From positions 89,115 through 153,114 of the IMG/VR virus record IMGVR_UViG_3300028920_000034: a stretch of 64,000 bases of DNA. The stretch is one strand, 5' to 3'. The DNA is from a virus. Under the pieces are notes generated by a model, which saw only the letters and a list, made by a program, of their open reading frames with translations, ran no database searches and was not told where the DNA came from. This document shows positions 20,255 to 64,000 of the stretch, piece by piece. Position 1 is the first letter of the stretch, and each line of letters starts with the position of its first letter. The position numbers and the translations under genes are program-made.

Positions 20255-20264
20255 GTGTCTTCCT

Positions 20265-37274: not shown

Positions 37275-37676
37275 TCATCCCTTCATGTTCGGGTCTCGTC
37301 TCAGGCACTTGAGGCACTGATTCGTCATTGGATCTACCGACTTGACCGCATGACACCGGATGCAGTCCTCCCAGGCTTCTGGCTCCCCATGCTCGTAGAA
37401 GAACACGCCGTCCGCCGGGGCCGTCATCGGTTGGATGGTGAAGCACTCCCGGATGATCTTGCTGGTGGGGGACTCCCAGGTGGGGTCCGCCACGCTGTGG
37501 AGTGTCCCTTCGGCCCCACAGCTCGGACACTGCTGTCCGCCAGGCTCCCACCTGGCCACGGGTGGGTCTCCCTCCACCACGGCCGGATTGGCCAGGAAGC
37601 ACGCCCGGCACATGCCGTTCAAGGGCTTCCCTCGCATGGACTCGAGGAGCTCCTGGACTCGGTTGTCACGCTCCAT
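37275..37676 (-). CDS. Zn-ribbon protein carrying an MCP-like QPMxAP..FF segment
   Basis: FTIQPMTAPADGVFFYE vs MCP VSVQPMSAPIGGIFFFE. Confidence 0.65.
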   Translation of the reverse strand: MERDNRVQELLESMRGKPLNGMCRACFLANPAVVEGDPPVARWEPGGQQCPSCGAEGTLHSVADPTWESPTSKIIRECFTIQPMTAPADGVFFYEHGEPEAWEDCIRCHAVKSVDPMTNQCLKCLRRDPNMKG

Positions 37677-38447
37677 GCTTCGCCTCCTCGCTGCGCTCCA
37701 CGGCCGCCCTGTAAAGCCGCTCGGCCTCCTGGAGCCGCTCCCAGGCTTCCCGCCTGGTCTCGCTCTGATGGCCGCCTGGGAGCTTCGTGTTGTCCACCAG
37801 CTTCACCCGGGCAAGCCGGGGCCGCATGTCCCCACCGCAGACCAGGCACTGGGGCCCATCCCCGCGCCGGTCGTTCAAGGGGTCCACGGTGGACTCGCAG
37901 GAGCACCTGGGTGGCTCCCAGGCTTCGTGGCGGCACCTGATGGAGCAACAGAGCTTGCCGCTCACCACCTCCCAGCGCCGGCCGTTCATCTTGAGGCTCA
38001 TAGCTTCCCTGGCCGCCGCGTAGGCCCGGCTCGGGTGCCCAGGGGTCACCACCTGGCTCCATCCCACGTCTCCGCACACGTCGCAAACCACTACCATCTT
38101 GATCGCCATTAAACCGGCTCCCTTCCGGCTTCGCCCGCCATCGGGTCTGGCCACTTCTGGCTGCTCACGTGTCCGCAGTCATCGCACCTGGTGATCACCG
38201 TGCCACCCAGGTAGGCGTTCCCCTTGCGCTTGGGCATCGCCACCCCGGTGGTGGTGTTCTTGCTCCCGCACGCATCGCAGGAGACCGGCTCGCTGGCGCT
38301 GTAGGTGGGCTCCTGGGGTGGCTCCTGTTCGAACATCCGATTGCGCTCGTAGCACTCCCGGCAGACGGACAGGAGCCGCCCGGTGGTCTCGCCCTTCATC
38401 ACGGGGTTGTCGCAGTCCGTGAACGCGCACTTCGGTCGGTTGCTCAT
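37666..38447 (-). other. Two Cys-rich hypothetical genes (37666-38109, 38109-38447)
   Basis: CxxC motifs; overlapping packing. Confidence 0.55.
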
Positions 38448-38902
38448 GGCAGCTCTCCCGGCGCCCCGCACCCGGGGCACCCGTTGACGTTGGGCAGGTA
38501 GGCGCGCCCGCAGTAGCCGCACGCCACGGCCGCCGGCCCGCGCTCGCCGGTCTCCTTGCCCATCGGCTCCACACCCACGGCCAGCATGTTCATGCAGTAG
38601 TCCGCCAGGAGCTGTGCCCCCGGGGCCGCGTTCTTGGCCAGCACCACGGACACCTGACCGCTCTGGTAGTCCACCGTACACCTGCCCCCGGCGTCCCCGT
38701 GGAGCTCGCCGTTGCCATCGGTGTCCTCGAGGCGCATCTTGCCGCGCTTACCCTTGATCGTGAGCACCAGCGTCTTGGGCACCACGGGCGTCCAGGTGAG
38801 CACCCCTTCCAGGTGAGCTTGCTTCTTGCCGGCTATGGCCACCGCCTCCTGGTAGACGTGCTCACTCGAGTAGTACCGGTCAAAAGACTGGATCAGGTTC
38901 AT
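38444..38902 (-). CDS. Stand-alone paralog of MCP residues ~128-240 plus C-terminal Zn ribbon
   Basis: NLIQSFDRYYSSEHVYQE...LTWTPVVPK vs MCP NMIQNFDRFYSSERVYHE...LDWFPVVPK (23/43 identical by eye). Confidence 0.85.
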   Translation of the reverse strand: MNLIQSFDRYYSSEHVYQEAVAIAGKKQAHLEGVLTWTPVVPKTLVLTIKGKRGKMRLEDTDGNGELHGDAGGRCTVDYQSGQVSVVLAKNAAPGAQLLADYCMNMLAVGVEPMGKETGERGPAAVACGYCGRAYLPNVNGCPGCGAPGELP

Positions 38903-39411
38903 CGCTTCGCTCCAGTCCCGGTCCCGCGCCGGAACCGGCCGTAGGCCACCCGGTAGTCCGGGTCCTTGAGGAGTCGCCCGGGGTCCCACCCGTCCGTCTC
39001 ACCACTGGCGTAGGCGATGATGGTGCCCTCCGCGGCGAGGCGCTTGGCGTGGTCCAGGTAGTACCGGCTGGCAGCCGTTCCGGTGGCCAGGAGCTCGCCC
39101 GTGTCCCGGTTGTAGCAGAGCTCCACGGTGGTGGGCTTGGGAGGCTCTGTGGGCTCCTCGAGCTCGGCCTCGATGGGCGCCGGTGGCGCTCGCCCGGTCT
39201 CGCCGGCCATTATGGGGACAATCTCCCCGTCCTCGAGCATCACCTCCACCCGGTCCGTAGCTGTCACATAGCTAGCATCCCCGGGCTTCATGAGGGGGCT
39301 GTCCGGCTCGAGCAAGTTGATCCCCGTAGTAAGCGCCCAGTCCACCTCCCTCTGAGTGAGCCCGGTGCCTGGCACCTTGGGCGATCCGGTCCACCTGTGG
39401 TTCTTGCTCAT
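38899..39411 (-). CDS. Hypothetical protein
   Basis: Operon packing. Confidence 0.6.
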   Translation of the reverse strand: MSKNHRWTGSPKVPGTGLTQREVDWALTTGINLLEPDSPLMKPGDASYVTATDRVEVMLEDGEIVPIMAGETGRAPPAPIEAELEEPTEPPKPTTVELCYNRDTGELLATGTAASRYYLDHAKRLAAEGTIIAYASGETDGWDPGRLLKDPDYRVAYGRFRRGTGTGAKR

Positions 39412-39414
39412 GGC

Positions 39415-39690
39415 TTACCTTCCTCGAGGGCATCCCGGGCCGCGCCCTCCGCTTGGTACTTCGCGCTCCGAATGTTCATCCCATGGCCACACGTGGGTGA
39501 AAATGTGGCGCATCGGCCCCAGGTGAACCTCCCTCACCTCCACCCCGACCGCCTTGGCCACGTAGGCGATGGCCGCCATGGCAAGCTGTCCGCCATGGTG
39601 ACGGTCATCGTGCTCTGGGGTCCAGTTCTCCACAGTCACCTGGCGCTGGCGCTCCGCCGCGATCAGGTCCACTCCGCTTGCTCCGCTCAT
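39415..39690 (-). pseudogene. Probably truncated member of the phage AERxRQ...WTPEHDD family
   Basis: IAAERQRQVTVENWTPEHDD..GQLAMAAIAY..WPW, but the family's usual C-terminal helix is missing. Confidence 0.45.
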
Positions 39691-40079
39691 GGTCTCACTC
39701 CGTTCGGTTCTACCAGACTGATCTCGAGCACCAGCCGATCCGCTGCGTCCTGTGGGGACATGCCCACCAGGTCCACCACTGGCAGCCCCTTGGCCCGGGC
39801 CGTCTCCGCCTCGCCGGTCATCCCGGTGGACCACTGTGGGCCCACAGCGATCACTCCACCGAACAGGCCCACCAGGCGCCGGCCGATGGCCAGGGAGAGC
39901 TCTCTGTCCCCTGGATAGTGGTCGTCCATCCCGGCCGCCATGGCGTACCAGGGCGCCACGGCGTGAATCCCGGACCGGACCAGGGCCCGCTGGTAAGCCA
40001 GCACGGACGCCAGGTTCGCTTGTATCCCTGCGTGGGTCTTCGCGCCCACTGGGTGGGCGATGTACCAAAGCCGCTTCAT
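39687..40079 (-). CDS. DUF4406 / nucleoside deoxyribosyltransferase-like Rossmann protein
   Basis: WYIAHP...N......AP...WSTGMTGE...A...GLPV. Confidence 0.6.
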   Translation of the reverse strand: MKRLWYIAHPVGAKTHAGIQANLASVLAYQRALVRSGIHAVAPWYAMAAGMDDHYPGDRELSLAIGRRLVGLFGGVIAVGPQWSTGMTGEAETARAKGLPVVDLVGMSPQDAADRLVLEISLVEPNGVRP

Positions 40080-40083
40080 GGTT

Positions 40084-41657
40084 TCATGGTTCCTTGTCCT
40101 TGTGGCGCTCAGGGCGATCCCTCACCCGCGGCATGGGCTCCCGGAGCTTGCCCCAGGAGTCCACCCCGGGTGGGTCCATGAACCAGTCCTTGAGCCACTC
40201 GAATTGCTCGGCTGGCAGCGCCCGGATCACCTCGCCGCACTCCGCGCACACCCAGGCCGGCCCACCGCGATCCCACCACGGGCGCCCATCGTTGTCCTGG
40301 ACGTTGGTAGTCCGCATGAACGCCAGGCTTGCAGCGAGCTGGATCGTGTCCTTGTCGCACTGGTAGCAGAAGATGGTTTTCATGAACAGGTACAGCTCCT
40401 TCCGCACTCGGGACACGGCTCCAGGTTCCCTGGCCCGTTGTCCTTGCACGCCTGGCGCACCTCCATGGCGAACCCGCGGATGTTTCCGGCCACCAGGGTC
40501 CGCTCCCGGTCGCTCAGGGAGTCCATGGGGAGCCCGCTGATGTACTTCTCCACGTCCACGGGATCTGCATCCTCGTCCTCCATGGGTTCGGTCTCCGGAC
40601 CCACCAGCACCGCCCCGGCTTCCGCGAGGAGCTCGTCCCGCGCCTGGTAGCCGTCATCGGGGCCGCCGGACACCTCTGGCACCGTCACGTTCTCCAGTGG
40701 AGTCGCGATCACCCTGTGGTCCAGCTTCCCCACGGCCTCCCAGATGGGCTTCACGGCCGCCTCGAGCTCCGCCAGCCCGAGGGGTTGCCCCTCCGCTTCG
40801 ATGGCCGCGTTGCACGCCGCCTCCACCACGTCCAGGTAGGTCCGGTTGGCGCGCCCGCGCTCACAGGAGCGCCCATAGGCTTCGCCGTCCGCCAGGGCCC
40901 CGGCGATGGCCGCGCTGGTGTCGCCGTCCAGGGCTTCCTTCAGGCTTTCGTTCACCTGGCGCAGATGGGCGAGGAACCCCTTGAGCTCCTCCACGCGCGC
41001 CTCGAGTCGCTTGATCTTGTCCTGGTCACTCATGGTCCAGTGGTTCCTCCATCCCGCTCGGGCCGTACAGCCAGATCACCTCGCTCACCTTGATCCCGCC
41101 ATCGTAGTCGGTCCCGTAGTCGATGCTGTCGATGCGCTCGCTCCACAGGCATCCGCAGACCAGCGCCCCGGCCGCGTTGTCCGGGATGCCACCCGGCTCA
41201 TCCGCCAGCACGTCCCGGAGCTCCTCCTCGAGCTCGGTTTCGTTGTCGAACCACGGCACGTCATGGGCCGCAGTGGCAGCCATGTTCACGATGATCCACG
41301 TCTGTGGTTCCTCTGGGTCTGGCCCCAGCCAGAGCCACACCGGCTGACTTTGGTGGTACGCCTGGCTCATGGCTTGGAACCTCCATCGCCATCCGGCCCC
41401 TCGAAGTAGCCCGTGTGCCACGGCGCGTGGAACCGATACGGATCGCTCACGCTGGGCAGCGTGGAGAGCTTCGGAAACCCCGGGGGCTTGAGGTTCATGT
41501 GGATCGTCTTCTGGGCCTCGCTCACGTGTAGCCGGGCCGTGTCGCACGCATCGGAGCCATGCTTCGATCCGTCCCGCGCGTAGTCCTGGGAGAGCTCCAT
41601 GAGCTCAATCTGGATCTGGGCCAGGCGCATCATGATGCTAGTCGCCCGCTTGATCAT
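40084..41657 (-). other. Four hypothetical genes (40084-40383, 40380-41033, 41026-41370, 41367-41657)
   Basis: Overlapping stop/start packing. Confidence 0.55.
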
Positions 41658-43056
41658 CGCCGTCCTCCTTGGTTGCCGCCGGGTGGCGGAGGGCCACCCT
41701 GGCCGCGTCCGCCAGACTCACCACGCTGATGGCCCACCAGCCGCACGTTCCGATCCCGCGCCCCAGGCCAGCGCACGTGAACGCCCAGGCGAAATCCAGG
41801 CTCCCCTCCGGCACCTGGGCCTCTATCATCACCGGCTTGCCGCACTCCGGGCAGCCGTTCCGTAGCACGCTGTCCACCAGGGTGTACGGGTCCAGCTCGC
41901 CGTCCAGCACCGGCTTGCCTGGTGGTGGGTGGAGCTGGTCTCGGAGGCGCCCGTTCTCCTCGTACAGCCGGCCCACCGTCTTGACCAGCCGCTCCCTCAC
42001 CTGGGCCTCCGTGTCCGGCGTCTGGAACCGGCCGCACGCCGGACAGAGCCCGTTGGAGCCGTTGTCCCCGCACACCTGGCAGCCCACCTTGCCCGACTTG
42101 GCTTCCCTGAGTTCGGCCCGGGCCTCCTCGAGCTCGGTGGCCAGCGTCACGCACGTCCCGGGGCACGGCTGTCCATCGTGGGTGAGGTAGAGCTTGTCCC
42201 GGGTGGCCTGGTCCATCTCCTCCACGGTGCGGACAGCCACATCCTTCACGTCCTCAAAGGACAGAAGCATGTTGCCCGATAGGTGGGTGTGGAGCTCCAG
42301 GGTGTCCTGGTCCTTGGCGTGGCCCACCAGGTGATCCATGGACTCCCAGTTCACATCCGCACCACCATCGCCCCGATCCCGCACCTTCACGATGCTCGCC
42401 TGGAGCGGCGTATAGGGGGTCATGGGCGACATGATGCCTTGCTCCATGCCCGGGATGATCACCGGGAGCACCACGCCGTCCCCCAGGACAACATGGCCCA
42501 CCAGGCCGCCCTGGCGCCGCGCCTGGTCCGAGTTGATGGCCAGGGGCACATGGACCACCGGCTCGCCGCCAGGGCTTCCCAGGGTCACCTCGCTGGCCTC
42601 GAGGGTCACGGTGCCATCGTCCCCGAGGCCCACCCGCGCCACGGGGATCTCCTTGTCCTCCTGTGGCGCGTACTCCATGCCCAGGTCTGGGTTGCGCTTC
42701 GGCTCCTCCATGGGCCCGAGGCCCACCAGCTCGCGCGCCCCGTTCATCGCCTCCCAGAGCTCCCCATCGGACACCGTGGGCTTGAGGCCCACGTGCTCCC
42801 TGGCCGCCTGGAGCTCGGGGCTGTTCAGGGCTTCGGAGAGCTCCCTGTGAACCGCGTCCGCCAGGCTGGTGATGCCCTTGTGTCCAGGATGCGTAGGCGT
42901 GGGGCTTTCCTCGAGTCGCATCCCAGCCTGGCACCATTCCTTGCCGCACTTGGGGCACCGCCAGTCTGCGAACCCGGCAATCTTGGCGAGCTCCACCCGG
43001 CACTCCGGACAGCTCGGCTGGGCTTGCTTGCCGCTCCACTTCTTAGTTGGGGCCAT
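41638..43056 (-). CDS. Mosaic multi-Zn-ribbon protein with PYTPLQ motif
   Basis: GGAGG-5nt-ATG at 43056; three CxxC clusters. Confidence 0.65.
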   Translation of the reverse strand: MAPTKKWSGKQAQPSCPECRVELAKIAGFADWRCPKCGKEWCQAGMRLEESPTPTHPGHKGITSLADAVHRELSEALNSPELQAAREHVGLKPTVSDGELWEAMNGARELVGLGPMEEPKRNPDLGMEYAPQEDKEIPVARVGLGDDGTVTLEASEVTLGSPGGEPVVHVPLAINSDQARRQGGLVGHVVLGDGVVLPVIIPGMEQGIMSPMTPYTPLQASIVKVRDRGDGGADVNWESMDHLVGHAKDQDTLELHTHLSGNMLLSFEDVKDVAVRTVEEMDQATRDKLYLTHDGQPCPGTCVTLATELEEARAELREAKSGKVGCQVCGDNGSNGLCPACGRFQTPDTEAQVRERLVKTVGRLYEENGRLRDQLHPPPGKPVLDGELDPYTLVDSVLRNGCPECGKPVMIEAQVPEGSLDFAWAFTCAGLGRGIGTCGWWAISVVSLADAARVALRHPAATKEDGDDQAGD

Positions 43057-43408
43057 GGTCCCCTCCTTTACCGCCATCGATCACGGTGGGAGTCCACCGC
43101 TGGGCACTGCTCTCCTCGGTGCTCTCCCCGTGGAGCTGCACCTGCACCACGGCGTCCCACGGCACCGAGCACCACCGGTAGCCCTCGCCAAAGCGTAGCG
43201 TCCCGCTGATGGCCTCCTGGGTACACTCCAGGTCCATGATCGGGGTAGGCGCATTGCGCCCGAAGTCCAGAGCCAGCACCTCGCCGCCACGGAACCGCTC
43301 CGGCACCACCACGCCTTCGGCTTCCAGGCGAAACGCCACGCGCACCATGTAGCCCTTGTTCAGGCCCTCCATGATCGCCGCCCGAGCTCGCTCGCCTTTC
43401 TCGCTCAT
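43043..43408 (-). CDS. SspB-like ClpXP adaptor
   Basis: GVVVP.....LALDF....PI.DL......ISGTLRFG....CSVPWDAV; tail TVIDGGK. Confidence 0.7.
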   Translation of the reverse strand: MSEKGERARAAIMEGLNKGYMVRVAFRLEAEGVVVPERFRGGEVLALDFGRNAPTPIMDLECTQEAISGTLRFGEGYRWCSVPWDAVVQVQLHGESTEESSAQRWTPTVIDGGKGGDHGPN

Positions 43409-46157
43409 CGCTCCCACATCCTTCCTGTGGCCCGCTGGTAGGCTTCGCGCACCATGTCCGGCCACCAGGGTGGCCCCTTCATGTAGGTCTCCATGCAGTC
43501 CAGCGTCCGCTTGCACTCGGGGCACGCCCCGTTCGGCGGACCCTCCATCCAGCGCACCTGGCCGCAGAACCCACACCGGCGGTAGCCGTCCTTGCGCCCC
43601 GGCCACCACCGGCGAGGGATGTTGATCGTCACCCCGGGCAGCGGCCGGAGGTGGGTCACCTGTGGGCTCCACCAACGCGCCGGACGCCAGTTGTATCGAT
43701 CCAGCCCGTACACGTTCACGGAAACAGGCCCGATGTTCACGGATAGCAGGTTCTTGTTCACAGCTTCCCTCCGCTTGGTGGCAGCCCGAAGGGGTTGTCT
43801 TCGATGGCCAGGTGCCACCACTTGAAGTCCTCCGCCTTCACCGGCCACCATCGGCCGCACTCGCACTCCCAGCCGATGCGATCCACGTCCCTGTTCTTGC
43901 TCAAGCTGTAGACCGGCTTTGCTCCCTCTCGCCCACAGTCCCAGCACACCCCGCCGATCTGTAGCGTCTTGTGAACACCTCGCTTGGCCATCACGGCCTC
44001 CCTTCGGGCCACGGTGGCCCACCCTGGCAGTACGGGTCCACGTCGCCCCAGTCCTCCACAGGGGGGCATCCGCACTCGAAGACGTGAGCATCGTGGATCC
44101 GGCACCAGTAGTCCTCGCAGTTGTCGCATGGGATCCACGCCGGGTAGCACTGGCCCTCCGCTGTGGTCTCTGGTCTCACGCCTTGCCCTCCACCGCCAGC
44201 ATCACCCTGGCCACCGGCCGCTGGCACTTCGGGCAGACCGGCTCCTCCTGGTAGCTGTCGCCCAGGAACCCTTGCTCGCACACCTCGCACTCGAGCTCCC
44301 TGGGTTCACCCTGGGCGTATGGATGGCCAGGCGGGGGCGGATGCAAGTCCTGAACCCCGGCGATGCCCACCGCGTTGCCGTAGTAGTCCGTGGCCAGCCA
44401 CACCACGCTCCTCGAGGATTCGGCGCCGGCCACTAGGCCCTCCGCCGGTGTCCCCTTGAACGCATCCGGGTGGAACGGGTCCCGGGCAAGCTCCCAGTGG
44501 TCTGGCGCGGAAAGGACCCAGAACATGCTCGGCGGATAGGCCACCAGGAGCTCCTCTGGCGAGCTGTAGCTGTCCTCCCTGCCCGTCGCCGTCACCACCT
44601 CCACCTTGCCTTCCAGGATCTCCCCGCGCGCCACCTCGCGGCCGTTCCAGCCCTCTGTGATGGTGATCAGCATCCGTCGCCTCGCTTCCCTGGAGTGAAC
44701 ACGTCCTGCCTCCCTCGCTCCATGTGAGCCACCAGGTCCACGCCCCAGACCCTCTGCGCCACGTCCACCCAGTTGCCGAGCCCAACGGCGCGCCCTGGAT
44801 TCTCTTCGTGCCACGCTTGAGCCCGCTTCGTGGCCTCCGCGGCAATCTCCTGGGCCGCGCTGAATGGCATCCCGATGAGGGGTGAACTCAGGTCCCCGCT
44901 GGCGAACCTGGTGTTGGCTTTGCCCACCATTTTCAGCACGCCGGCACAAGTCTCGCACACGGGCGCGCCCGCCCACGCGGCGCCGTCCCACCTGGTGTCC
45001 AGGCCATCGTCTCCGCACTGTGAGCACTTCATCGCTTTCGCTCCACCAGCTCCACCGTGGCCATGGCGTCCAACATCCGGCCAATGGCCATCACGTTCTT
45101 GTCGGTGAACCGGACGCGCATCGTCACGTCCATGGACTCCACCGCGCCATCGTGGTCGAATCTCCGTTCCACGTTGTGGATAAACCCCACCGCCCCACGC
45201 TGTCCCGCGCGCACCGAAGGCGGCTCCTTCCCCTCGAGCCGCGCCAGCGCCGCATCGAACAGCGCCTGGTCATCGATCACGTACTCAGCACACATCGTAC
45301 TCGCTCCTGTGATTGCCGCCGCCCCGGTCATACTGGAGAGCCGCTCGCAGAACAAAGCGCACGTCCTTGGGCAGTAGCATCGGCTGTCGGCACCCGTCTG
45401 GCTCCCAGGGGTGGCCCATCGCCCCGCACGCACCGTAGGGCACCACGGTCCGCTTGCGGAGGATCACCTTCACACGCCCGCGCTCGTCCAGCCAGCTCGG
45501 GGGGATCCCCCTGGTGGACGGAACGCGCCGCTTCTTGTTCCCGCAGAACCAGCACCTCACGGTGCGCCGCTTGGGTTTCAATTCCATCGCTCCTTGTCTG
45601 GCTCCGGTGGTGGCTCCGAGATCACATCGTACCGGTTCACGGACCCCTCGCGGAGCACCTGGTAGGCACACTTCTCGGCACGCTCCAGGTAGTCCTTGAC
45701 CGCCTCTGCCCGGCGCCGCTCCGCCACGGACCACACCCACAGGCCAGCTACCACCGCAGCGAGCACCAAGATCAGCACCGCCGCGACGATCATGGCATTG
45801 GCTCCACGGCGTCCCTGGGCACCTCGAGCTGGATCGTGATCGTGCGCCCGCGCCCGGGCCGCTTTCGCATGAACGGGGAGCCGTCCTCCGGTGGCCCTTC
45901 CACCACCTCGGTTTCGACCTTCACCTCGGTGATCTCAGCGCCTCCCTTGAGGTAGGCGTCCAAGGTCCCAACCACGTCATCGCGCCGCTCCTGGGTGGTC
46001 ATCTTCCGCATGGACATTTTCATCTGCACCGCTTCACCTCCTCCGCCATGGTGAGAGCCAGAGCCACGGGGAACAGCGCCACGGCTAGACCGAACCAGAG
46101 CCCCGCCTTGGCCACGTGACCGGCCGCCTTGAGCCAGTCCATGGATTCAGCCGTCAT
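43405..46157 (-). other. Run of about 10 small hypothetical genes, many with CxxC motifs or TM helices
   Basis: Overlapping ORFs 43405-43761, 43758-43991, 43991-44179, 44176-44673, 44667-45032, 45029-45295, 45285-45587, 45578-45793, 45790-46029. Confidence 0.5.
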
Positions 46158-46491
46158 GCTGTCCCTCATCGAAGGCGAACACCTGGTGCTCGCGCTCGCC
46201 ATCCTTCACCAGCACAGGGTTGATCCGCAGTAGTCCCCCTCCCGCGTAGTTGCATGGGGACTTGCCGCCGAACGCATCGTTGTCCATGTGGCCGTTCCAG
46301 CGCCCGATGCAGGAGAAGTAGGCCGTGCTGGGCTGCACGTCTACCCCATGATCATGGAGCTCCTTGAAGTCCTCCACGGACTGGACGTGGCCGCAGCTCG
46401 GGCAGACGAATCGCCACTTCATCTGGTCATCCCCGAACAGCTCGATGCCATGGGCTTCCCACTCTTCCTTTGTCATGATGATGCGCTTCAT
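46147..46491 (-). CDS. VVA0879-like protein
   Basis: EW...G.ELFG.D...W.FVCPSCGHVQS..DF...SCIGR...CNY..GGL. Confidence 0.65.
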   Translation of the reverse strand: MKRIIMTKEEWEAHGIELFGDDQMKWRFVCPSCGHVQSVEDFKELHDHGVDVQPSTAYFSCIGRWNGHMDNDAFGGKSPCNYAGGGLLRINPVLVKDGEREHQVFAFDEGQHDG

Positions 46492-47084
46492 AGCGTGATG
46501 ATCCGCTTGGGTTCATCGTCCTCTGGCGCTCCCTGGCCGCTGCACCGCGGACAGATGAAAGTCTGCACCGGGCTTGCGAGCACCAGGAGCACACCCTTGA
46601 GGGCCTTGATCTGCTCCTCGGACTCTAGGGCCACCACCTGGTTCTCCTGGTTCACGCCCACGGGCTGAATCTGGATCGGCACCCCGAGGGTAGCCTTGCA
46701 GTGGGGGCACGCTGCCGTGATGGTGGGCACCATGTGGCCTACGGGCACCTCCCAGGGGTTCTCCACGTCCGCGTTCGGGTCTCTCTCTTCGCTCATCGTG
46801 TCATCCTCCAATCATCGAAGAAACCATCAGTAGGATCCCGACCACCACGGCCAGGAGCACCGCGCCCACCAGGAGGCGCTTCCAGAATCCGGTCACCGCC
46901 GGGTCACTCATGGGGCTTGCCCTCCTCAATCATCCGGATCACCCGCGCCAGCCGAGCCACTGCCCGGTCGAAAGCCATGGGCTCCGCCAGCCGCTCGCGG
47001 TCCACCTGGAGCCCCCACGCCTTGAGGGCCCGCGGAATGCTCTCCTTGAGCCGCTCCTCACGCTCCTGGGCTGTTGGCATCCGC

Positions 47085-47507
47085 TCAACTCGCATCAGGA
47101 AACACCTTGTGGACAAGCGGGAAAATGAACTTGGTGTACTTCTCCACGTCGTCTGGATCGATACCTTTGCGAGCATGATCCTTGACCGATTCCTTGAGCC
47201 TCCTGGATTCAAGCTCAAATAGCCTGGCCAAGATAAGCGCCCTGTCGTCCACTCCCTCCACCATCCATGCCCACTTTTTCAGCGTATTCTCGGGCGATCC
47301 ATAGTTGTCTCTGCATACCTCACAGTCGGGATCATTGCAGATCGGGAGCAAGCTCATGTGAAGATCCGACAACGCACAGCACGCATCGCAGTCTTCGTTG
47401 CCAACCTCTATCCCGTCTTCCACGTAACAGGTGTGCTTGAGCCTGGCTTCAATGCCGCGCCTGATCTCAGCAAACCTGACTTCATCGTAGCTGCTCGGGT
47501 GACTCAT
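47085..47507 (-). CDS. Cys-rich protein fused to a paralog of the MCP N-terminus (residues ~23-88)
   Basis: KKWAWMVEGVD..LARLFE...YTKFIFPLVHKVF vs MCP QKWAWLLDGID..LARLFE...YVKFIFPLVRRVW. Confidence 0.85.
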   Translation of the reverse strand: MSHPSSYDEVRFAEIRRGIEARLKHTCYVEDGIEVGNEDCDACCALSDLHMSLLPICNDPDCEVCRDNYGSPENTLKKWAWMVEGVDDRALILARLFELESRRLKESVKDHARKGIDPDDVEKYTKFIFPLVHKVFPDAS

Positions 47508-48683
47508 CTCTCTGCTCCCGCTGGCACCAGGTTCCCCTGAAAGCCGCAGTCATGGCACTTGGCCGTGTCCGACACGTAGGGCTTGCGCCAGATCACCTTT
47601 CCGCACCTGGGGCACTTCATCTTGCGCCACGGCTTCCTCGGTGGAGCGTAGCGTCTAGGTGCCTTCGGGGGCTTACGTTTCGTCGCCATCGTCCTTGTCC
47701 TTGCCGCCGTCCAGGCACCGCAGCTCCAGGGTGGCCTTCGGCACTGGCCACGCGCCTATGTGTTCAGAGGTGCCTACCCCGAACCCGGGAATCTCCGCCC
47801 TGGTCATCGGGTCCATCTCGTACCGGTCGCACCGCCGGCAATACCAGCCGTCCTCATGGACGTTCAGGGTCTCCTCGAGTAGATCGTGGCACACCCGGCA
47901 CACCGGGATCGTGGAGCCGATCATCATGTCGATGTTGGCCGCCACCGAACCGTCCGGCTGCCCCTCGCCCACCACCACAGACCCACCTGGCCGGCGAGCT
48001 CGAGGGGGCACGTCCGCCGGGGAGCCCTCCGCCAGCACCAGCGCCCACCACCCGCGGAGCTCGTCTTCGTTCCCAGTGGGGTAGTCCGCCCGATGGCACT
48101 GGCACCGGAACGCAGGCACCAGCGCCCGCTGGAACCCGAGGAGCCCTTCCGCCACCACCGGCTTCATCCGCTCGCCGCACCTGGGGCACTCGAGGATCAC
48201 CATGGCCACGGCCCTCCCTCGCGGATCGCGCGCTCCCAGGCCCTCCGGTTGCGCCGGTACTCCAGCTCGTTTCTCACCACCTCACCGATCCTTGAGAACG
48301 CCCTGTAGAGCATCATGATCGCCTCGAGAATGAACACCTCGAGGAGCTTGCGTAGCGCAACCCAGCTCACGTCACCCTCCAGATAGCCCGTGGCGCGGCC
48401 GGCACGCCCAGATAGCCGGCCTGGCGTCCACCGGGCCTCGCCCGCGGCGCAACGGCTCCACGTGCGGAGCCAGGGGCACCAAGTCCCACACGGGTGGCCG
48501 TGGTGGCGGTAGACATGGCTCTGGGTCTGGCACCGAGGAGCCGCTCGAGCTCACGTGGAACACCACCGTTCGGTCGCTGGTGGCGTTGGGCGGATCTCCC
48601 GCCCACGTGTAGCTCACCATCTGGTAGCCGTTGGGGCACGTGGGGCTCGAGTCCACGGTCCGGCTGGGGGGTAGAGCTGCCAT
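47504..48683 (-). other. Small hypothetical genes (47504-47689, 47673-48209 Zn-ribbon, 48372-48683)
   Basis: ORF packing; CxxC motifs. Confidence 0.5.
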
Positions 48684-49321
48684 CAGACGTAGAACACCGC
48701 GCCCCGTCGAGACGCGCCTTTGTCCGGGCGATAGTGGGCCACAGTGGCGCCGAAGATCGGCCCGCGGTATCCGGCCTGGTGGAGCACCTCCGCCGCAGCT
48801 CGCAGCGTGGCGCCGCTGGTGAACACGTCGTCAACGATCAGCACTCCCGCCGCCTCCGGCACTCCCTTCACGGCCATGGTCCTCACGTGCTCCTGGTAAC
48901 CCGTCCCGGCATTCACGCCCCCGGCCCGGCGCCGCATCCGACTGGACTGCACGGCCACGGCACGCTCCACCAGGTCCACCGCGCGCTTGCCCGCGCCCGC
49001 GCGCACAAGCGCGTTGGCCAACACCATGTTGCTCGGGCGCCCGGACGCGCTTCGTGGAGCTGCCGTCACCACGCCCTTGAAGCCCTTGAGCCCAGGGTGC
49101 CGAGCGAGGGCCTCCGCCCCGGCGCGGATCGCCGCCTGGTCCCCGGCCTTGAGCCGTTCGATCAAGTCTTGGGTGGCATCCGTCTCCGGCGATGCGCCCC
49201 GGTGCTTTGTCCGGCTCAGGTACAGCATGGCGGAGTACACCGGGAACCGACCCATGCCCTTCCCGGACAGTGACTTCCGAAGCTCCTCGAGGAGCACCTG
49301 TAGGCGTGCTGTCATGGTCAT
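48683..49321 (-). CDS. Type I phosphoribosyltransferase-fold protein (ComF-like)
   Basis: VLIVDDVFTSGATL PRPP-binding loop. Confidence 0.8.
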   Translation of the reverse strand: MTMTARLQVLLEELRKSLSGKGMGRFPVYSAMLYLSRTKHRGASPETDATQDLIERLKAGDQAAIRAGAEALARHPGLKGFKGVVTAAPRSASGRPSNMVLANALVRAGAGKRAVDLVERAVAVQSSRMRRRAGGVNAGTGYQEHVRTMAVKGVPEAAGVLIVDDVFTSGATLRAAAEVLHQAGYRGPIFGATVAHYRPDKGASRRGAVFYV

Positions 49322-49347
49322 GGGCAAATCCTACCATCCGAGCCATC

Positions 49348-50649
49348 CTAGTCACCACCCATCTCCTCGAGCGCAAGGTCTGCAAATAGGGGACCGAATA
49401 CACCGGCGATCCGACGCCTGGCAGTATCCGCCCACTTCGGATCCAGCTCCACACCCACGAAGCGCCTGGACAAAGCCACCGCCGCCGCACCAGTAGTCCC
49501 CGAGCCACAATACGGGTCCAGCACCACGTCTCCCTTCCTGGAGCCGATGGTGATCAGGTACTGCATGAGCTTGGTAGGCTTGACAGTCGGGTGCTGATTG
49601 TCACCCACGCCCCGGTTCTTCTCCCGCTTGGACGGCTTGGGCACCAGGAGCCATGGAAACGTCCGGCGCACCCTCTCCGGGAGCTCGGCCATGGCCTTGG
49701 CGTGCCATGCGTCCAAGTCGAAGTAGCGAGACGCCGAACCGGCGTCTCTTGCATACTCACGCTGCATCTTCCCAGCCTTCCCATAGATGTTTCCATCGTT
49801 AAACCCATGGTAGCTGCCGCTCATTTTTCCGCTCTTGCAAATCCTCCCATCATCCAACGCATCGTCCTCTACCAGCACGTTGGCGGGGAAGCGGCCACCG
49901 CCGGGGCAACTACTTCCGTGGTCCACGTCCTGAAATCCGCCGCCGTGGTAAATGTTGCCGTCACCTATTTCGCGCCTATGTGTCCAGTGACTCCCTTTGG
50001 TACTGCCGGTAATCGGTATCCGCCCATCGTCCAGCCACGTACACCCCTTCCCATTGTTGAGCGCCTGGTCGAGATAGGTCTTTTGCGCCAGCGGCTTCAT
50101 GACCACGATCACCGGCTCGACCGCAGGCTTGGGCTGGAAGCCTCCATAGGCACCGTCCAATGCCTTCGCCTCTGGTGTCGATGGCTCCGTTACATTCGGA
50201 GACATTGAAGCACTGTTCCATCGAGCATGATGCTCCGCGTTCTTCCCAGGGTCACGAAAGTTTGGGTTCCTTCCAACAACCTCCCTTTCCGCCCCCGCTC
50301 GCTTGTCGGCTGCCTTGCTAAGGTTCTGCGCCTTTGGAAACCCGCTGGCGTACACCCAGTAGATCGACGTGAACCCAGCCTCGAAACCTGCCTCACCAAG
50401 CCGAACGATCATCTGGGCCATGCAGTCCTGGCGCGGGGTGCAAAGGATGAAACCGAACGCCCCTGGCTTCATCACCCGGAGGCACTCGCGCCATGCGTCC
50501 ACCGGAGGCACCGCGCGGTCCCAGTCGCGGTTCATGAACTTGAGACCGTATGGGGGGTCGCAACACAGCACGTCCACGCACTCGTCCGGGAGCTCGGCCA
50601 GTCGCTCCTGGCAGTCCCCCGTGAGGATTGTCACCCTGTCCAGTTTCAT
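49348..50649 (-). CDS. DNA methyltransferase (N6A/N4C, beta class)
   Basis: DPPY near the N-terminus, HPTVKP..LM..L, VLDPYCGSGTTG near the C-terminus. Confidence 0.9.
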   Translation of the reverse strand: MKLDRVTILTGDCQERLAELPDECVDVLCCDPPYGLKFMNRDWDRAVPPVDAWRECLRVMKPGAFGFILCTPRQDCMAQMIVRLGEAGFEAGFTSIYWVYASGFPKAQNLSKAADKRAGAEREVVGRNPNFRDPGKNAEHHARWNSASMSPNVTEPSTPEAKALDGAYGGFQPKPAVEPVIVVMKPLAQKTYLDQALNNGKGCTWLDDGRIPITGSTKGSHWTHRREIGDGNIYHGGGFQDVDHGSSCPGGGRFPANVLVEDDALDDGRICKSGKMSGSYHGFNDGNIYGKAGKMQREYARDAGSASRYFDLDAWHAKAMAELPERVRRTFPWLLVPKPSKREKNRGVGDNQHPTVKPTKLMQYLITIGSRKGDVVLDPYCGSGTTGAAAVALSRRFVGVELDPKWADTARRRIAGVFGPLFADLALEEMGGD

Positions 50650-50930
50650 CGCCCGCGCTCTGCCTCCACCCGGGCCGCCCCGAGGAGCCCGTAGCCGGCA
50701 ATGTCCCGCCAGGGGGACTCGCCCAGGGCGTCCCTGTCCGTGGCGATCCGGAACAGCTTGTCCACCACCCGCGTCACCGCCAGGGCATCATCCATCTGGT
50801 CCGGGGCAATACCGTCCGGATACAGGGTACGCATCACCTGGCCGCTTCGCCCGAACGCATCGCCGTAGGCCGCCTGCTTCTCGGTGACCAGCCGGCCGAT
50901 CTCGCGGCCCAGTTTTTCAAAGTCTGCCAT
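50646..50930 (-). CDS. Nucleotide-modification-associated domain 1 (DUF1599-like) protein
   Basis: KQAAYGDAF...R.VDKLFRIA...ESPW.DIAGY. Confidence 0.6.
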   Translation of the reverse strand: MADFEKLGREIGRLVTEKQAAYGDAFGRSGQVMRTLYPDGIAPDQMDDALAVTRVVDKLFRIATDRDALGESPWRDIAGYGLLGAARVEAERGR

Positions 50931-50931
50931 C

Positions 50932-51004
50932 GGAGACCCTCTTGACTCTTATTCCCCTACAGAGGGAGATAAGGTTAATTAAGAAGAAGCAACAGCCGTG
51001 CCAA
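50932..51004 (-). repeat. ~70 bp intergenic element, copy D (ends 1 nt before the ATG of 50646..50930)
   Basis: Minus strand TTGGCACGGCTGTTGCTTCTTCTTAATTAACCTTATCTCCCTCTGTAGGGGAATAAGAGTCAAGAGGGTCTCC. Confidence 0.85.
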
Positions 51005-51496
51005 GTCAGTGCGCGCTGTCATAGGGCACGCTGTCATGGGCCGCCTGGTACGTCCGGCACCAGTCGAGCACCTCGTCTTCGGCCACCGGCCAGGAGACCC
51101 CACAGCAATTCCACCAGATGCTGCACCCCTCGAGGGCATCGTTCATGTCCTCGTTCCGGTCGCATGTGGCGCGAGCTCGCTGTGGAGCTCTCCCGCACCG
51201 CCAACAGGTCGCACTCATGTGCGAGTCACCTGGCCCCGGCCCGGCGAACATGCCGCTTGGGGGTCACGCTCCTGGGCCCATCGAAGAGACCGGCGAGCCA
51301 GAGCTGCGCCAGGTCGGGGTCCACCTCCCACTGGTGGCCGCACTCGGGGCAGAGCCACCTGGGCTGGGCACGGGTCACCATGCCGCTCACTTTGTTCACC
51401 CCGGCCGTGGTCATGGTGGCCATGGTCTGGATCTGCTCCCGGCACCGGGGGCACTCTTCGGGTACATGCTTCGCTACTGCCATCTGATTGCTCCTG

Positions 51497-52012
51497 TCAT
51501 TGACACCCTTGTGTCCTGGTCCACGCAAGGACCTTTTTCAAAGTCTTGCTCCACTGGTTTCCGGCGCCCTTGTCCCGCAGATAAATCTGCTCAATCTCGT
51601 CCATCGCTGCCCGGATCTCGCCCTTTGTTGGTATGGATTCATCCTTTGGTTTACTGGGCAAATCTCTCAGTTTGTCTGGATACGGAACATCGGTCACCTG
51701 CCAAGCCATTGCACTCTTTCCAGACGGATTTTTGGCACGGATCTTTGGGTGTGGCTCAACCAGTCCAGCCTTTTGCAGCGTTCGCCTCCGAGCTGTAATG
51801 CCGTTTGGATCAATGTCCAGGGCCTCACGGATCTGCACATCCGACTGAAGCGGGTTTTCCTTGATGTAATCGTAGACTCGCCGGCACTGGCTCTCCACCT
51901 TCGGCGCCACAGCTTTCGCAGATTCCTTAGATGTTTCAGATCCTACCTGATACGGCGCGCCGACGTACCCGTGAGCATCATCATCATCGTGATCATCGTG
52001 ACCATCGCTCAT
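51497..52012 (-). CDS. Winged-helix DNA-binding protein
   Basis: TS..SA..V.....Q..RV..YI......D..I...L.......ARR..L...GLV; locally lower GC. Confidence 0.6.
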   Translation of the reverse strand: MSDGHDDHDDDDAHGYVGAPYQVGSETSKESAKAVAPKVESQCRRVYDYIKENPLQSDVQIREALDIDPNGITARRRTLQKAGLVEPHPKIRAKNPSGKSAMAWQVTDVPYPDKLRDLPSKPKDESIPTKGEIRAAMDEIEQIYLRDKGAGNQWSKTLKKVLAWTRTQGCQ

Positions 52013-52016
52013 CGGT

Positions 52017-52613
52017 TCACTCCCACGTCATGTCCTCACCATCAGCCGCATCGGAGTCGAGCTCCTCGAGCTCGTTCAGGTAGGGCTGGCACGCCGCCAC
52101 CACGCGCTGGCACATGGCCACGCCCATCTGGCCAATGTGGCAATGGCGAGGGGAAAGGTTGAGCTGGTCCGCCAGCCAGGTGTAAGCGGACTTGCGATGC
52201 CCTGGGCGCCCCCACGGCGGGTCCGGGTGGTCCCGCCAGAGCGGATCGAAGGCAGCATGGGCCGCCATCTTCGCCTGGCGAAGCTCGCTGTCAGCGAGGC
52301 GCCCCAGAGCGTTCTTCGTGCCATCGTGGCACCCGACCCACGCCTTGCACTTCCAGCACACCCACATCCAGCCGTAGTTGCGGCCGGGGCCGTAAACCTT
52401 GCTGGACTTCACCAGCTCCGCGTCCTCGCCACAGTAGTCGCACTGGACCGGCCCGCGGATGTTGTCCTCGCGGATCACCCGGTCCGCATCCGCAGCCGTC
52501 TCAAGGTACAGCACGTTCCCGCGACTGAACCCAGGCCCCATCCGCTCATCGCCCTCCCGGATCGTGAGCGGATCGGCCATGGCCTCGAAGCTGTGATCGT
52601 GAGAGTCACCCAT
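52017..52613 (-). CDS. DUF3268-like zinc-finger protein
   Basis: CDYCG..AEL...VYG...W.C..C.AWVGCH.GT..ALGRLA..LR.AK..AH..FDPLW...AY.WLA..L.....CHIG. Confidence 0.8.
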   Translation of the reverse strand: MGDSHDHSFEAMADPLTIREGDERMGPGFSRGNVLYLETAADADRVIREDNIRGPVQCDYCGEDAELVKSSKVYGPGRNYGWMWVCWKCKAWVGCHDGTKNALGRLADSELRQAKMAAHAAFDPLWRDHPDPPWGRPGHRKSAYTWLADQLNLSPRHCHIGQMGVAMCQRVVAACQPYLNELEELDSDAADGEDMTWE

Positions 52614-52824
52614 CACTCGCCTCCATCCCCTGGTGTGAGCCACTTCGGCACCTTCGTGGGGTCCTCGCCGTAGTCGAGAATATCGTACAGGGCGTCGATG
52701 TTGCGCCCGTGGACGCGGGGCTTGTTGTAGCGATGCAAGATCCTGGCGTAGGCCAGGATGGCATCCCGCATCCGGTTGGAGCTCTCCGGGAGCTCCTGGC
52801 ACTTGCTACAGCCCCGGTACTTCA

Positions 52825-53706
52825 TCACTGCACCCGGAACCCCTTGGTGGGGGAGCGGGGATCCCAGCTCTGCGGAATCTGGAACCCGGTCCCGAACGTG
52901 GTGCCGCCCCAGCCGTTGGAGTCACCAGGGATCGCCCCGGACTTCTCCATCCAAGGCACGGCGATCTTCTGCCACGCCTCCCAGCCCGGATCGCACTCGC
53001 GCTGGTCCGACGCCTGGCGATGCGCGTAGATGTACTTGAACGGCCGGTCGTTGTCCTTGAAGCCGTCCAGGATGAGGTTGAGAAGCACCCCGGCCGCCTT
53101 GATCTGCTCAGGGGTGATCGGGTCGGGCCCACCGCCTGGCTTCCACCAGTAGCCCGGGTAGCCTTCGGGATTGCCGTCCAGCTCGATCCCCAAGGTCCAC
53201 AGGCTCGGCCGATGGCCGTGCCAGATATGAAGATCCCACGGGTGGCACAGGACGATCCGACCCCCCAGGGTGACGTGCATGTGGGCGTTCACCTTGAAGT
53301 AGCGTTCCGGGTTCTCCCCGAGCCGACACGCGGTCCGGTGGAGCACCACCCCGGTGAGCTCGGGCCACCGGTGGCCCTTGTCCGGCACCCCGTTCTTCGG
53401 CGGGGCAAGCTGGCCGCGGTAATCGAACACCTCCACCCCATCGATCACCGTCATGGGCTCGCTGGGCTTCTGGTCCTCTGGAGTGTCCAGTCTCGCGTGC
53501 ATCGCCTCCATGGTCTTCGGGCCCACGATCCCGTCATCGGTCACACCAAGGTCCGACTGAGCCTTCCTGGTGGCCTCGTCCGTCTCGTCCCCGAAGCCGC
53601 CATCCGCGCCCCACTTGGGGAGCTTATAGCCCGCGTCCAGGAGTAACTCCTGCCACCGCCGCACACCTGGCCCACGGTCTCCCTTCAAGATCCATTGGTT
53701 GCTCAT
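52825..53706 (-). CDS. Endolysin: peptidoglycan-binding domain + N-acetylmuramoyl-L-alanine amidase
   Basis: GDRGPGV..WQ..L..ADG.FG..T...DGIVGPKT; VLHRT, AH, WHG, GIE, AHRQ, DPG. Confidence 0.85.
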   Translation of the reverse strand: MSNQWILKGDRGPGVRRWQELLLDAGYKLPKWGADGGFGDETDEATRKAQSDLGVTDDGIVGPKTMEAMHARLDTPEDQKPSEPMTVIDGVEVFDYRGQLAPPKNGVPDKGHRWPELTGVVLHRTACRLGENPERYFKVNAHMHVTLGGRIVLCHPWDLHIWHGHRPSLWTLGIELDGNPEGYPGYWWKPGGGPDPITPEQIKAAGVLLNLILDGFKDNDRPFKYIYAHRQASDQRECDPGWEAWQKIAVPWMEKSGAIPGDSNGWGGTTFGTGFQIPQSWDPRSPTKGFRVQ

Positions 53707-53740
53707 CGGTCTATCCCTTCCCGGCCGCACTGGCCGTTAG

Positions 53741-54520
53741 TCAGTCTGCTCTGCGTTCCCAGGCAACCGCGCCGCAGTCGCACGCCATCCGCTCGCACCC
53801 TGGCTGAATCCACAGCCGCTTGCCGCACTCTCGGCACGTGTGCTCATTGAACACGATGTGGACAGGCTTCCGCTCCTCCGGCTCAGGTTCCTCTTGGAAC
53901 CTTGCACGCTGGCGAGCACGCGCCCGGCGCTGCACATCTCTCCATAGCTCCTCGCTGTTCATCGCGTGCCAAGCGCCATGCGGAGCACCTTTTCCATGGC
54001 GTCCTTATGGCCCTCCAGGTAACCCTGGTGCTCCTTGTCCAGGAGCGCCTGTGCGCGCTCCTTGCGGACCATCTTCTCGTGAATATCTCGAAGGCGCTGG
54101 TCCTTTTTCTCACTCTCCGCGCGGAGAGCGTTGTACTCGGTTCTGAGACTGCGGAGCTCCTTGTCCAAGCTGATCACTTGGATCCGCAAGTCTTCATACT
54201 CCTGTGCGATCAGCTCACGGCTGTGAAGCGCCCACGCGAGCTGCCTTGACACGCCAGCCTTCGTGCCCGGTTCATCCGGAGGAGCCTCAAGTGAGATTAC
54301 TTTCGGTTTGTTCATCATCGGCCTCATCCTGGCCCGCCAGTTGGGCCTCCAATCGTTTGTTCTCTTCCACCAACAGGTCCACGTATCGCTCGAGCTCACT
54401 CTCCCGCTGGCGGGGCCACCCGGCCCAGGCACACACAATGACAAAAATCGGCAACAGCACCGTCAGCATCACCATGGCGCCCAGCACCACGTAGACCCAC
54501 CATGGGATCGTGAAACCCAT
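53741..54520 (-). other. Small hypothetical genes (Zn ribbon 53741-53962, coiled coil 53959-54318, TM protein 54287-~54520)
   Basis: ORF packing. Confidence 0.5.
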
Positions 54521-55725
54521 CAGAACGTCGGCAAAGCCCCGCCAAGCCGGGGACGGGGGTGCCCACACTCCTCCTTGCGGAACTGAATGCTGGCCTCCTC
54601 CACCTCGAAGGGGTTGCCATGGGCGATGTACGCCACGTCTGTCACCAGAGTGAGGTGGAGCTGCCCGTTGCCGGTCCGGAGCCGTTCGATGTTGGCCTTG
54701 GCGCCCCAGTACCAGGACGCGGGGCCACCGTTCTCGCGCCGGAGCTCCGCGCACACCGGGCGCTCCTCTTGGATCGCCCTGTCCAGCATGGCGCCCACGT
54801 CGGGAAGGTTCTCGCTGTCACGCGCCGCCACGGTCACGGCCACATGGTCGGGCTTTCCGTCCAGGCCCACCCGGTACTCCACCTTGGCCAGCGCCGGGCT
54901 CCACGCAAAGGGACCCACCTGGAACCGCCAGTTGCGCTTCACATCCTCCGCCGCAACCGTCGCAGCCCAGCCGCCCTTGATCCCGCGCACGTCCGCCACG
55001 GGGTTGAGGGCCGTAATGAATTCGGGACGGTCCACCCGCTTCATGTACTTCTGATCCAGGTCCGCTCCCACCAGATCCTTTGGAATGCCCAACGCGCCCA
55101 CCAGCTCACGGTCCAGATCGCGCGCCACCTGGCCCGCCATAGCGTCCATGATGGTCTTCTCTGCCGAGCCGCCGAACACATCGGTGAACTCCTCGAAGGA
55201 TTCGATCAGCCGTGCCCCCGGCCGGGTGAAGCTGCCGCGCTTGTTCTTGGCTTCCGCACGGAGCTTGAGCTCGCGTTCGATCTGGTCCTTGAAGCGGTCC
55301 AGATGCTCGGGCGCGATCACCTCGCGTTCGATGGCCTGGCGCACCATCTTGTCCACCGCACGCTCGAAGGCGTCCACCAGATCGATCACCATGGGCGCCG
55401 GCACCACGATGGTGTCCGCGGTCACACCTGGCGCCCCGCGGCGCTTGTCACCGTCCAGCTCGCTGGCAATGGTCCCCAGGCACCACTTGTCCCCGATGCC
55501 CAGGTAGTCGTCCAGGTTGATGATGTTGGATAGCACCCGCGTGGGCATCCGCACCGTGTTGTTGTAGTACCCCTGGTTATGGTACTTGCGCTGGGCGTGT
55601 TTGTACGCCTCCTTTGCGATCTTCGCCTTGTGGCGCGCATCGTCCATATCCCACCCGGCCGCCTCCATGGCGTCCAGCACCTGGACCGCCCTGTGAAGCA
55701 CACTCTCTTCGTGTTTTCCGCTCAT
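54520..55725 (-). CDS. Mosaic hypothetical protein containing sheath-, MCP- and portal-like motifs in tandem
   Basis: FTRPGARLIESFEEFTDVFG / MAGQVARDLDRELV / ALGIPKDLVG. Confidence 0.6.
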   Translation of the reverse strand: MSGKHEESVLHRAVQVLDAMEAAGWDMDDARHKAKIAKEAYKHAQRKYHNQGYYNNTVRMPTRVLSNIINLDDYLGIGDKWCLGTIASELDGDKRRGAPGVTADTIVVPAPMVIDLVDAFERAVDKMVRQAIEREVIAPEHLDRFKDQIERELKLRAEAKNKRGSFTRPGARLIESFEEFTDVFGGSAEKTIMDAMAGQVARDLDRELVGALGIPKDLVGADLDQKYMKRVDRPEFITALNPVADVRGIKGGWAATVAAEDVKRNWRFQVGPFAWSPALAKVEYRVGLDGKPDHVAVTVAARDSENLPDVGAMLDRAIQEERPVCAELRRENGGPASWYWGAKANIERLRTGNGQLHLTLVTDVAYIAHGNPFEVEEASIQFRKEECGHPRPRLGGALPTF

Positions 55726-57420: not shown

Positions 57421-57687
57421 TCACGTCACACCTCGCCCAGCCCACAACACGAAGCGGAGGCGCCCCTCTGTACGCGCCTGGAGCTCGTGAAACTGGGTTT
57501 TCGATAGATGGATCCCGCCGTACCCGCACCCCTCCTCGCCCGACCAGAACACGCAGTAGTAGCCGCTGGTCTCCGGCATGTAGTTGTACCGCACCAGATC
57601 GATCACCGGGTGCTCCTCGAGGAGCCGCAGTACATCCTCCACGCACATCAGCCGCAAGTAGCCGTTGGAGGTTCGCTTGGTAGTCAT
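57421..57687 (-). CDS. Hypothetical protein
   Basis: ORF packing. Confidence 0.5.
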   Translation of the reverse strand: MTTKRTSNGYLRLMCVEDVLRLLEEHPVIDLVRYNYMPETSGYYCVFWSGEEGCGYGGIHLSKTQFHELQARTEGRLRFVLWAGRGVT

Positions 57688-57699
57688 GCCGAGATTGTA

Positions 57700-63979: not shown

Positions 63980-64000
63980 ATGCCCATCCTCATCGCCGCA

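Follow-up and report, generated by a model that had tools for sequence, protein, structure and literature searches.

Diverged copies of major capsid protein modules in zinc-ribbon accessory genes of an uncultured T4-like phage, found by sequence comparison

We analyzed a window of 64,000 nucleotides, positions 89,115 to 153,114 and thus the last 64 kb of the 153,114-bp IMG/VR record IMGVR_UViG_3300028920_000034. The record is from an uncultured T4-like phage and was rated complete by CheckV. GC content of the phage is about 65% (about 0.85 at third codon positions, GC3), and the minus strand holds nearly all genes. The window contains a T4-like head module with a gp23-type major capsid protein (MCP), and, at about 31 to 61 kb, an accessory region of small translationally coupled genes in series, many of them with CxxC pairs. 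A first-pass annotation had claimed that five accessory open reading frames (ORFs) carry pieces of the MCP that tile it without overlap. Three of these are called pieces 1, 2 and 3 below (Table 1). Sequence comparison indicated that two, possibly three, of these zinc-ribbon accessory genes hold diverged copies of discrete MCP modules.

Table 1. Features of the 64,000-nucleotide window discussed in the text (coordinates are those of the window).
Feature	Coordinates	Strand	Description or evidence
Piece 1 gene, 140 aa	47085..47507	-	Cys-rich N-terminal module and C-terminal copy of MCP propeptide and N-arm helix
MCP-like segment of piece 1, residues 77-136	47100..47279	-	tblastn, BLASTP
428-bp stretch absent from sister phage G001	47096..47523	.	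Genome alignment and junction sequences
Piece 2 gene, 133 aa	37275..37676	-	Two predicted CxxC...CxxC zinc ribbons flanking a 17-residue MCP-like motif
Motif TIQPMTAPADGVFFYEH of piece 2, residues 80-96	37389..37439	-	Aligned to MCP 98-114, T4 gp23 ~113-129 (GVQPM stretch)
Piece 3 gene (P0006), 152 aa	38444..38902	-	Met, MCP I-domain copy, linker, C-terminal CxxC...CxxC zinc ribbon
I-domain-like segment of piece 3, residues 2-108	38579..38899	-	tblastn, HMM
Predicted zinc ribbon of piece 3, C128, C131, C142, C145	38468..38521	-	Cysteines invariant in P0006, P0007 and P0008 (alignment)
MCP, gp23 type, 499 aa	4669..6168	-	Pfam PF07068 (Gp23) E 4.6e-69; phrog_138 E 1e-69
Prohead protease, S77 family	6230..7798		T4-like head module
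T4-type portal	10070..11782		T4-like head module
Phosphoribosyltransferase-domain protein	48683..49327	-	Accessory region
N6/N4 DNA methylase	49348..50649	-	Accessory region
Amidase_2 endolysin with PG_binding_1 domain	52825..53730	-	Accessory region

Similarity to the MCP was analyzed by BLASTP of the MCP against each claimed ORF, by all-against-all BLASTP of 1053 minus-strand ORFs, and with an MCP-family hidden Markov model (HMM). The HMM was built from 22 MCPs of the clade and run on every six-frame ORF of this genome and of its sister phage G001 (IMGVR_UViG_3300029258_001212; 153,540 bp with direct terminal repeats). Residues 77-136 of piece 1 aligned with MCP 25-88 at 41% identity (BLASTP E 2e-11 pairwise, 2.6e-8 against all 1053 ORFs), and the HMM matched at its positions 32-99 (E 4.6e-7). 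Residues 2-108 of piece 3 aligned with MCP 128-241 at 38% identity (BLASTP E 6e-23, tblastn E 2.9e-18), and the HMM matched at positions 135-241 with E-values of 3e-26 to 3.9e-26. These results bore out the claims that the two ORFs carry MCP ~23-88 and ~128-240, with small shifts of the boundaries.

The claim that piece 2 carries MCP ~97-114 was upheld only in part. Residues 80-96 matched MCP 98-114 with 9 of 17 positions identical and 15 of 17 similar, but the significance was marginal: E 1e-5 in the pairwise comparison, 0.001 against 187 filtered ORFs, 0.026 in tblastn of the genome, 0.016-0.043 with the HMM (positions 102-123), and above 1e-3 against all 1053 ORFs. The two remaining similarities were not recovered. 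The ORF at 54520..55725, said to have a motif like MCP ~293-309, gave nothing above chance (BLASTP E 3.1, HMM E 5.3). In the ORF at 41638..43077, PYTPLQ shares four of six residues with the C-terminal PYVGLQ of the MCP as a hexapeptide identity only; the BLASTP alignment (E 1.3) lay away from this site and the HMM gave no match. By these sequence comparisons, we regard two of the five claimed similarities as secure, one as marginal and two as chance.

No accessory ORF, in any frame, matched the HMM beyond position 245, and no C-terminal MCP remnant was found. In the Pfam scan the three piece ORFs had no Gp23 domain, and the HK97-type core that characterizes a gp23-type MCP was absent from them. 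The comparison of accessory ORFs with the structural proteins of the phage, which the first-pass annotation had proposed, yielded the MCP copies in pieces 1 and 3; in the all-against-all BLASTP of all minus-strand ORFs, no fragment of portal, sheath or other structural protein was found in accessory genes. Pieces 1 and 3 were the sole accessory copies of any structural protein in this comparison. The pieces do not overlap on the MCP, as had been claimed, but this by itself means little (P 0.35 for three pieces placed at random, 0.62 for two). Tight tiling has P ~0.006, a post hoc value that hinges on marginal piece 2, and for the two robust pieces alone a gap of 39 residues or less has P 0.14.

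To relate the pieces to the parts of the capsid protein, the MCP was aligned to T4 gp23 in PDB and an AlphaFold2 (AF2) model of it was used (predicted local distance difference test score, pLDDT, 79.7). The model has propeptide helices at 15-26 and 37-61, a disordered segment at 62-77 that includes the I-S-E|A site, an N-arm helix at 75-89, a strand at 106-116, I-domain strands (beta-domain) at 141-237, and an HK97-type core that starts at 249. On this model, piece 1 would correspond to the MCP propeptide and N-arm helix, and piece 3 to the whole insertion (I) domain with its lead-in. The piece-2 motif, a marginal match, would correspond to the loop and strand between these two modules.

The first-pass statement that the pieces sit in intact, translationally coupled ORFs with CxxC pairs was correct for all three. 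Zinc-ribbon matches of the pieces in Pfam were all below the cut-offs. Piece 3 is a stand-alone ORF, not inserted in an HK97-fold capsid protein, and it retains all invariant columns of the I domain. Its AF2 model is a beta-sandwich (pLDDT 83). The top match of this model by VIA-align was residues 199-303 of the phage P1 MCP (PDB 9ukm; Z 9.6, rmsd 2.6 A, 91 aligned residues), followed by the phage S6 capsid (Z 7.7); by Foldseek alone the match was weak (E 0.02). The base composition of piece 3 is native (68% GC, GC3 0.90).

An exhaustive HMMER search with piece 3 over 1.84 billion representatives detected two end-to-end homologs, P0007 (145 aa, 44% identity) and P0008 (152 aa, 40% identity). 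Both have the same I domain followed by a CxxCGR...GCPGCGA ribbon. A longer protein, P0011 (407 aa), has an internal I domain 51% identical to MCP 128-239 of this phage, then two ribbons of similar type, and at its C-terminus a hydrophobic stretch that we read as a putative membrane anchor. The other matches were MCPs at their I domains and, more weakly, long repeat and signal-peptide proteins. The small I-domain proteins share the FDRYYSSE lead-in that is specific to MCPs and absent from generic copies of the domain, indicating that the small I-domain and ribbon proteins originated in an MCP gene. In a maximum-likelihood tree, P0006, P0007 and P0008 formed a clade with support of 98/99 and a long stem, and P0011 stood separately among MCP I domains; the backbone was unresolved, and the tree cannot tell whether P0011 was captured separately or is a member that evolved fast or was converted. 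When the family alignment was run against viral and metagenome contigs, the matches were MCPs and one sheath, with no new small members, and an IMG/VR pattern scan with piece 3 returned nothing. Among cultured phages, no relatives were found by megablast, blastn or tblastn, with the sole exception of one distant MCP match for piece 3. The family appears to be unnamed, with no Pfam match above cut-off, a best PHROG match of E 0.013 and no annotation in the sources. A predicted complex of the MCP with the piece-3 family scored 0.00, which gives no verdict either way.

The same beta-sandwich was also observed outside the accessory genes. Three tail-region proteins (genome 54533..55567, 57436..58398 and 58398..59390; L002, L003) contain it in one or two copies each, and it is inserted in the tail sheath (genome 78424..80613), all upstream of the window, and beta-sandwiches of the I-domain type are found in bacterial secreted repeat proteins as well. 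Given this recurrence, the fold appears to be a mobile domain for surface display in this phage clade.

Piece 1 has a different build. Its N-terminal module (residues 1-76) has cysteines at 27, 40, 43, 44, 57, 62 and 65, and the MCP homology follows it. With 53% GC and GC3 of 0.67, clearly apart from the genome values, the gene is compositionally foreign. The stretch absent from G001 equals a single ORF together with its Shine-Dalgarno sequence, and in G001 the flanks are only a 4-bp gap apart. Piece 1 starts in an ATGA that it shares with the stop codon of the gene upstream, it terminates 8 nt beyond the ATG of the gene that follows, and the MCP homology continues up to the 3' boundary of the insert. 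No homologs of piece 1 were found among near or longer length classes, the IMG/VR pattern scan was empty, and the ESM Atlas gave low scores only.

Piece 2, with ribbon knuckles CRAC..CPSC and CIRC..CLKC, is a chimera, with residues 1-97 similar to P0003 and P0004 and residues 98-133 similar to the C-terminal end of P0005. The gene is retained in G001 (95% amino acid identity) and in the more distant syntenic contig L055 (68%). Its dN/dS against G001, a check that the first-pass annotation had suggested, was 0.08, and the gene is thus under purifying selection. The broader claim that the pieces reflect selection rather than debris agrees with the intact coding ORFs, with this value and with the conserved family of piece 3; for piece 1, a singleton, the evidence is the intact ORF.

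The Cys-rich gene at 38109..38443 (minus strand), which starts with MSNRPKCAFTDC (MSNRPK type), adjoins piece 3. Its G000 and G001 versions share the N-terminal half and have unrelated C-terminal halves. This gene is a second example of sub-gene module swapping.

G001 is collinear with this phage and ~88-96% identical by block (~92%), with an MCP that is 98.6% identical. Many indels separate the two genomes, and G001 has piece 2 only. In a more distant phage, G002 (159 kb, MCP 51% identical), all three pieces were absent and only the structural copies of the domain were found. L055 and the contig of P0008 have related accessory regions with differing neighbors. Pieces 1 and 3 each form an indel of their own that spans exactly one ORF, with ATGA at three of the four junctions and with 53% versus 68% GC; piece 3 is an exact ATGA-to-ATGA indel that is present here and absent in G001. 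Because the indels are separate and exact, the compositions differ, and the location of the piece-3 family varies among related phages, pieces 1 and 3 are best read as independent reuse of MCP modules on mobile, strain-variable gene cassettes. The pieces are not inherited together, and a single coordinated tiling or decoy set is therefore unsupported. The proposal of five pieces forming one such set failed already at the level of similarity, with two chance matches and one marginal one, and the robust pieces differ in composition and distribution.

The first-pass annotation had named a shattered second MCP gene as the alternative; a shattered gp24-like vertex gene was considered along with it. 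The segments are indeed adjacent on the MCP (25-88, 98-114 and 128-241), and a gp24-like vertex paralog of the MCP was not detectable genome-wide with the MCP-family profile, so that the MCP itself presumably forms the pentons as well. However, the pieces are in the order 1, 3, 2 on the coding strand, and the intact genes that separate them, over ~8 kb and 0.8 kb, are unrelated. No ORF that holds a piece is broken and every piece is in frame, the indels of pieces 1 and 3 are distinct and differ in GC content, piece 3 has full-length orthologs elsewhere, and the C-terminal half of the MCP left no trace in any frame. We rejected this explanation on these grounds and give it almost no weight.

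What would such proteins do? The reading that we consider most likely, while holding it tentatively, is that they are mimics of MCP contact surfaces, each copy being a whole interaction module. The mimics would rival the MCP for one of its partners, be it the MCP or scaffold of the phage itself or of a co-infecting related phage, EF-Tu or another host factor, or a host sensor of the MCP, and the zinc ribbon would serve as a compact stabilizing or tethering module. This reading is favored because the copied modules are contact-making parts of gp23 and because strain-variable genes often serve conflict between phage and host or between phages; genes that vary between near-identical phages are often conflict genes. 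The module boundaries agree with the elements of the AF2 model of the MCP, which also supports mimicry. In T4, the I domain rests on the neighboring gp23 subunit of the capsomer, and the N-terminus of gp23 is located in the prohead interior, where it probably touches the scaffold core (PMC9546572). The Gol region of T4 gp23 is conserved and interacts with EF-Tu (PMC3014915).

Several observations weigh against mimicry. The sister phage manages without pieces 1 and 3. The similarity of piece 2 to the MCP is statistically marginal; five of the ~7 amino acid differences between its versions here and in G001 fall within residues 79-102, the stretch of the motif, and the motif lies at a module junction and is absent in the homolog P0004. 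Piece 1 had no relatives in the searches made. It is homologous to the gp23 propeptide and N-arm, but the prohead-protease site is absent: the conserved N49 of the MCP, the cleavage-site residues E66/T68 and the I-S-E|A site were all lost. The first-pass statement that conserved residues were kept is thus true of piece 3 and not of piece 1. Lastly, the I-domain fold is widespread in sheath, tail proteins and bacterial repeats, and its use in piece 3 may be unrelated to the capsid.

In the main rival explanation, modules are reused generically and have no capsid role. The region is hyperplastic, and recombination in it, illegitimate or by microhomology, would have assembled new small genes from any DNA available; the MCP parts would serve as a convenient fold or linker, or some of the ORFs, piece 1 especially, would be near-neutral passengers. 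The mosaic nature of the region argues for this, as seen in the piece-2 chimera, the alternative C-terminal halves of the MSNRPK-type neighbor and the many indels relative to G001, and so do the occurrence of the I-domain fold in other proteins and the lack of relatives of piece 1. On the other hand, the copies keep to domain boundaries, the combination of I domain and ribbon is conserved in four proteins, possibly through two separate captures, and the MCP is the sole structural protein with accessory copies. We consider generic reuse possible, although on the unlikely side.

The first-pass annotation had read the pieces as epitope decoys, which would titrate immune sensors that recognize the MCP, such as those of the Lit/Gol, CapRel and Avs types. 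The strain variability of these accessory genes speaks for decoys. Pieces 1 and 2 together span what in T4 are the Gol region and the EF-Tu-binding first quarter of gp23 (PMC3014915), defenses that sense the MCP exist (PMC9712102), and the phage protein DSAD1 blocks DSR2, a sensor of a structural protein (PMC11087589). A faithful copy of the trigger, however, would be expected to activate the sensor rather than titrate or block it. The segment equivalent to Gol is divided between two proteins, its conservation in piece 2 is marginal, and the set is not inherited together. Decoy function is, in our judgment, quite improbable.

The pieces might also be components of the virion or prohead, with piece 3 as a decoration or cement protein that docks on capsomers and piece 1 as prohead cargo that enters through its propeptide-like, scaffold-binding region. 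The docking of the T4 I domain on a neighboring subunit and the contact of the gp23 N-terminus with the core (PMC9546572) are consistent with such roles. However, some 32-41 kb separate the genes from the head module, their neighbors are small accessory genes, the sister phage lacks pieces 1 and 3, decoration proteins do not usually have zinc ribbons, and piece 1 has no MCP cleavage site. We therefore think this explanation very unlikely.

Capsid proteins are now recognized as main triggers of immunity in bacteria, and satellites use homologs of capsid proteins to hijack assembly. Stand-alone capsid modules in dispensable mobile genes are concrete and cheap reagents for asking whether such modules bind capsid subunits, the scaffold, or EF-Tu and immune sensors. 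The I-domain and zinc-ribbon family has clean domain boundaries. We can imagine further, as an unlikely generalization, that large T4-like phages repeatedly graft capsid modules (I domain, propeptide and N-arm, Gol-region strand) onto zinc ribbons, and that the resulting strain-variable mimics blunt host sensors or factors or poison the assembly of competitors, forming an undescribed class of mimicry. Even if only generic domain reuse is involved, the locus would be a clear example of accessory genes built from parts of a structural gene.

Other features of the window and the record were also noted. The prohead protease is present in a single genuine copy, and a dead mini-copy of it was sought in the genome and not found. 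An AAA+ protein at 19343..20320 (minus strand) has a Mg-chelatase (ChlI) match above the Pfam cut-off and also matches a sigma-54 interaction domain. The last ~230 bases of the record (window 63770-64000) repeat its first ~150, with 49 of 50 amino acids identical in frame. A short terminal redundancy is therefore present in the record, though its IMG/VR label is linear.

Among known systems, piece 3 is closest to the I domain of gp23-type capsid proteins (T4 gp23/gp24, P1 MCP with PDB 9ukm). It is homologous in sequence to the I domain of the MCP of this phage and of its relatives, with the same boundaries, and its model agrees best with that of P1. It differs from these domains in that it is stand-alone, fused to a zinc ribbon, encoded in an accessory region and dispensable in the sister phage. 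The piece-2 motif, together with the last residues of piece 1, aligns with the N-terminal stretch of gp23 where conservation is highest and in which GVQPM lies. This is reminiscent of the Gol region, which we take to span T4 gp23 93-122; the difference is that the 17-residue match is marginal and corresponds to T4 gp23 ~113-129 in position only. In T4, the Gol region of gp23 activates the e14 Lit protease via EF-Tu (PMC3014915, PMC8829019).

The exact single-ORF indels between near-identical phages, the start/stop overlaps and the atypical GC content resemble the morons of hyperplastic regions in T4-like phages, but the cargo here would be derived from the phage lineage's own capsid gene. The closest precedent for the possible action of the pieces is Ccm of SaPIbov5, a capsid-protein homolog that redirects capsid assembly of the helper phage (PMC8569155). 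Like the pieces, Ccm is the product of an accessory gene derived from an MCP, and it joins or competes in assembly. Ccm, however, has the full HK97 fold and is encoded by a satellite, whereas the pieces are peripheral modules only and are carried in the genome of a complete phage itself.

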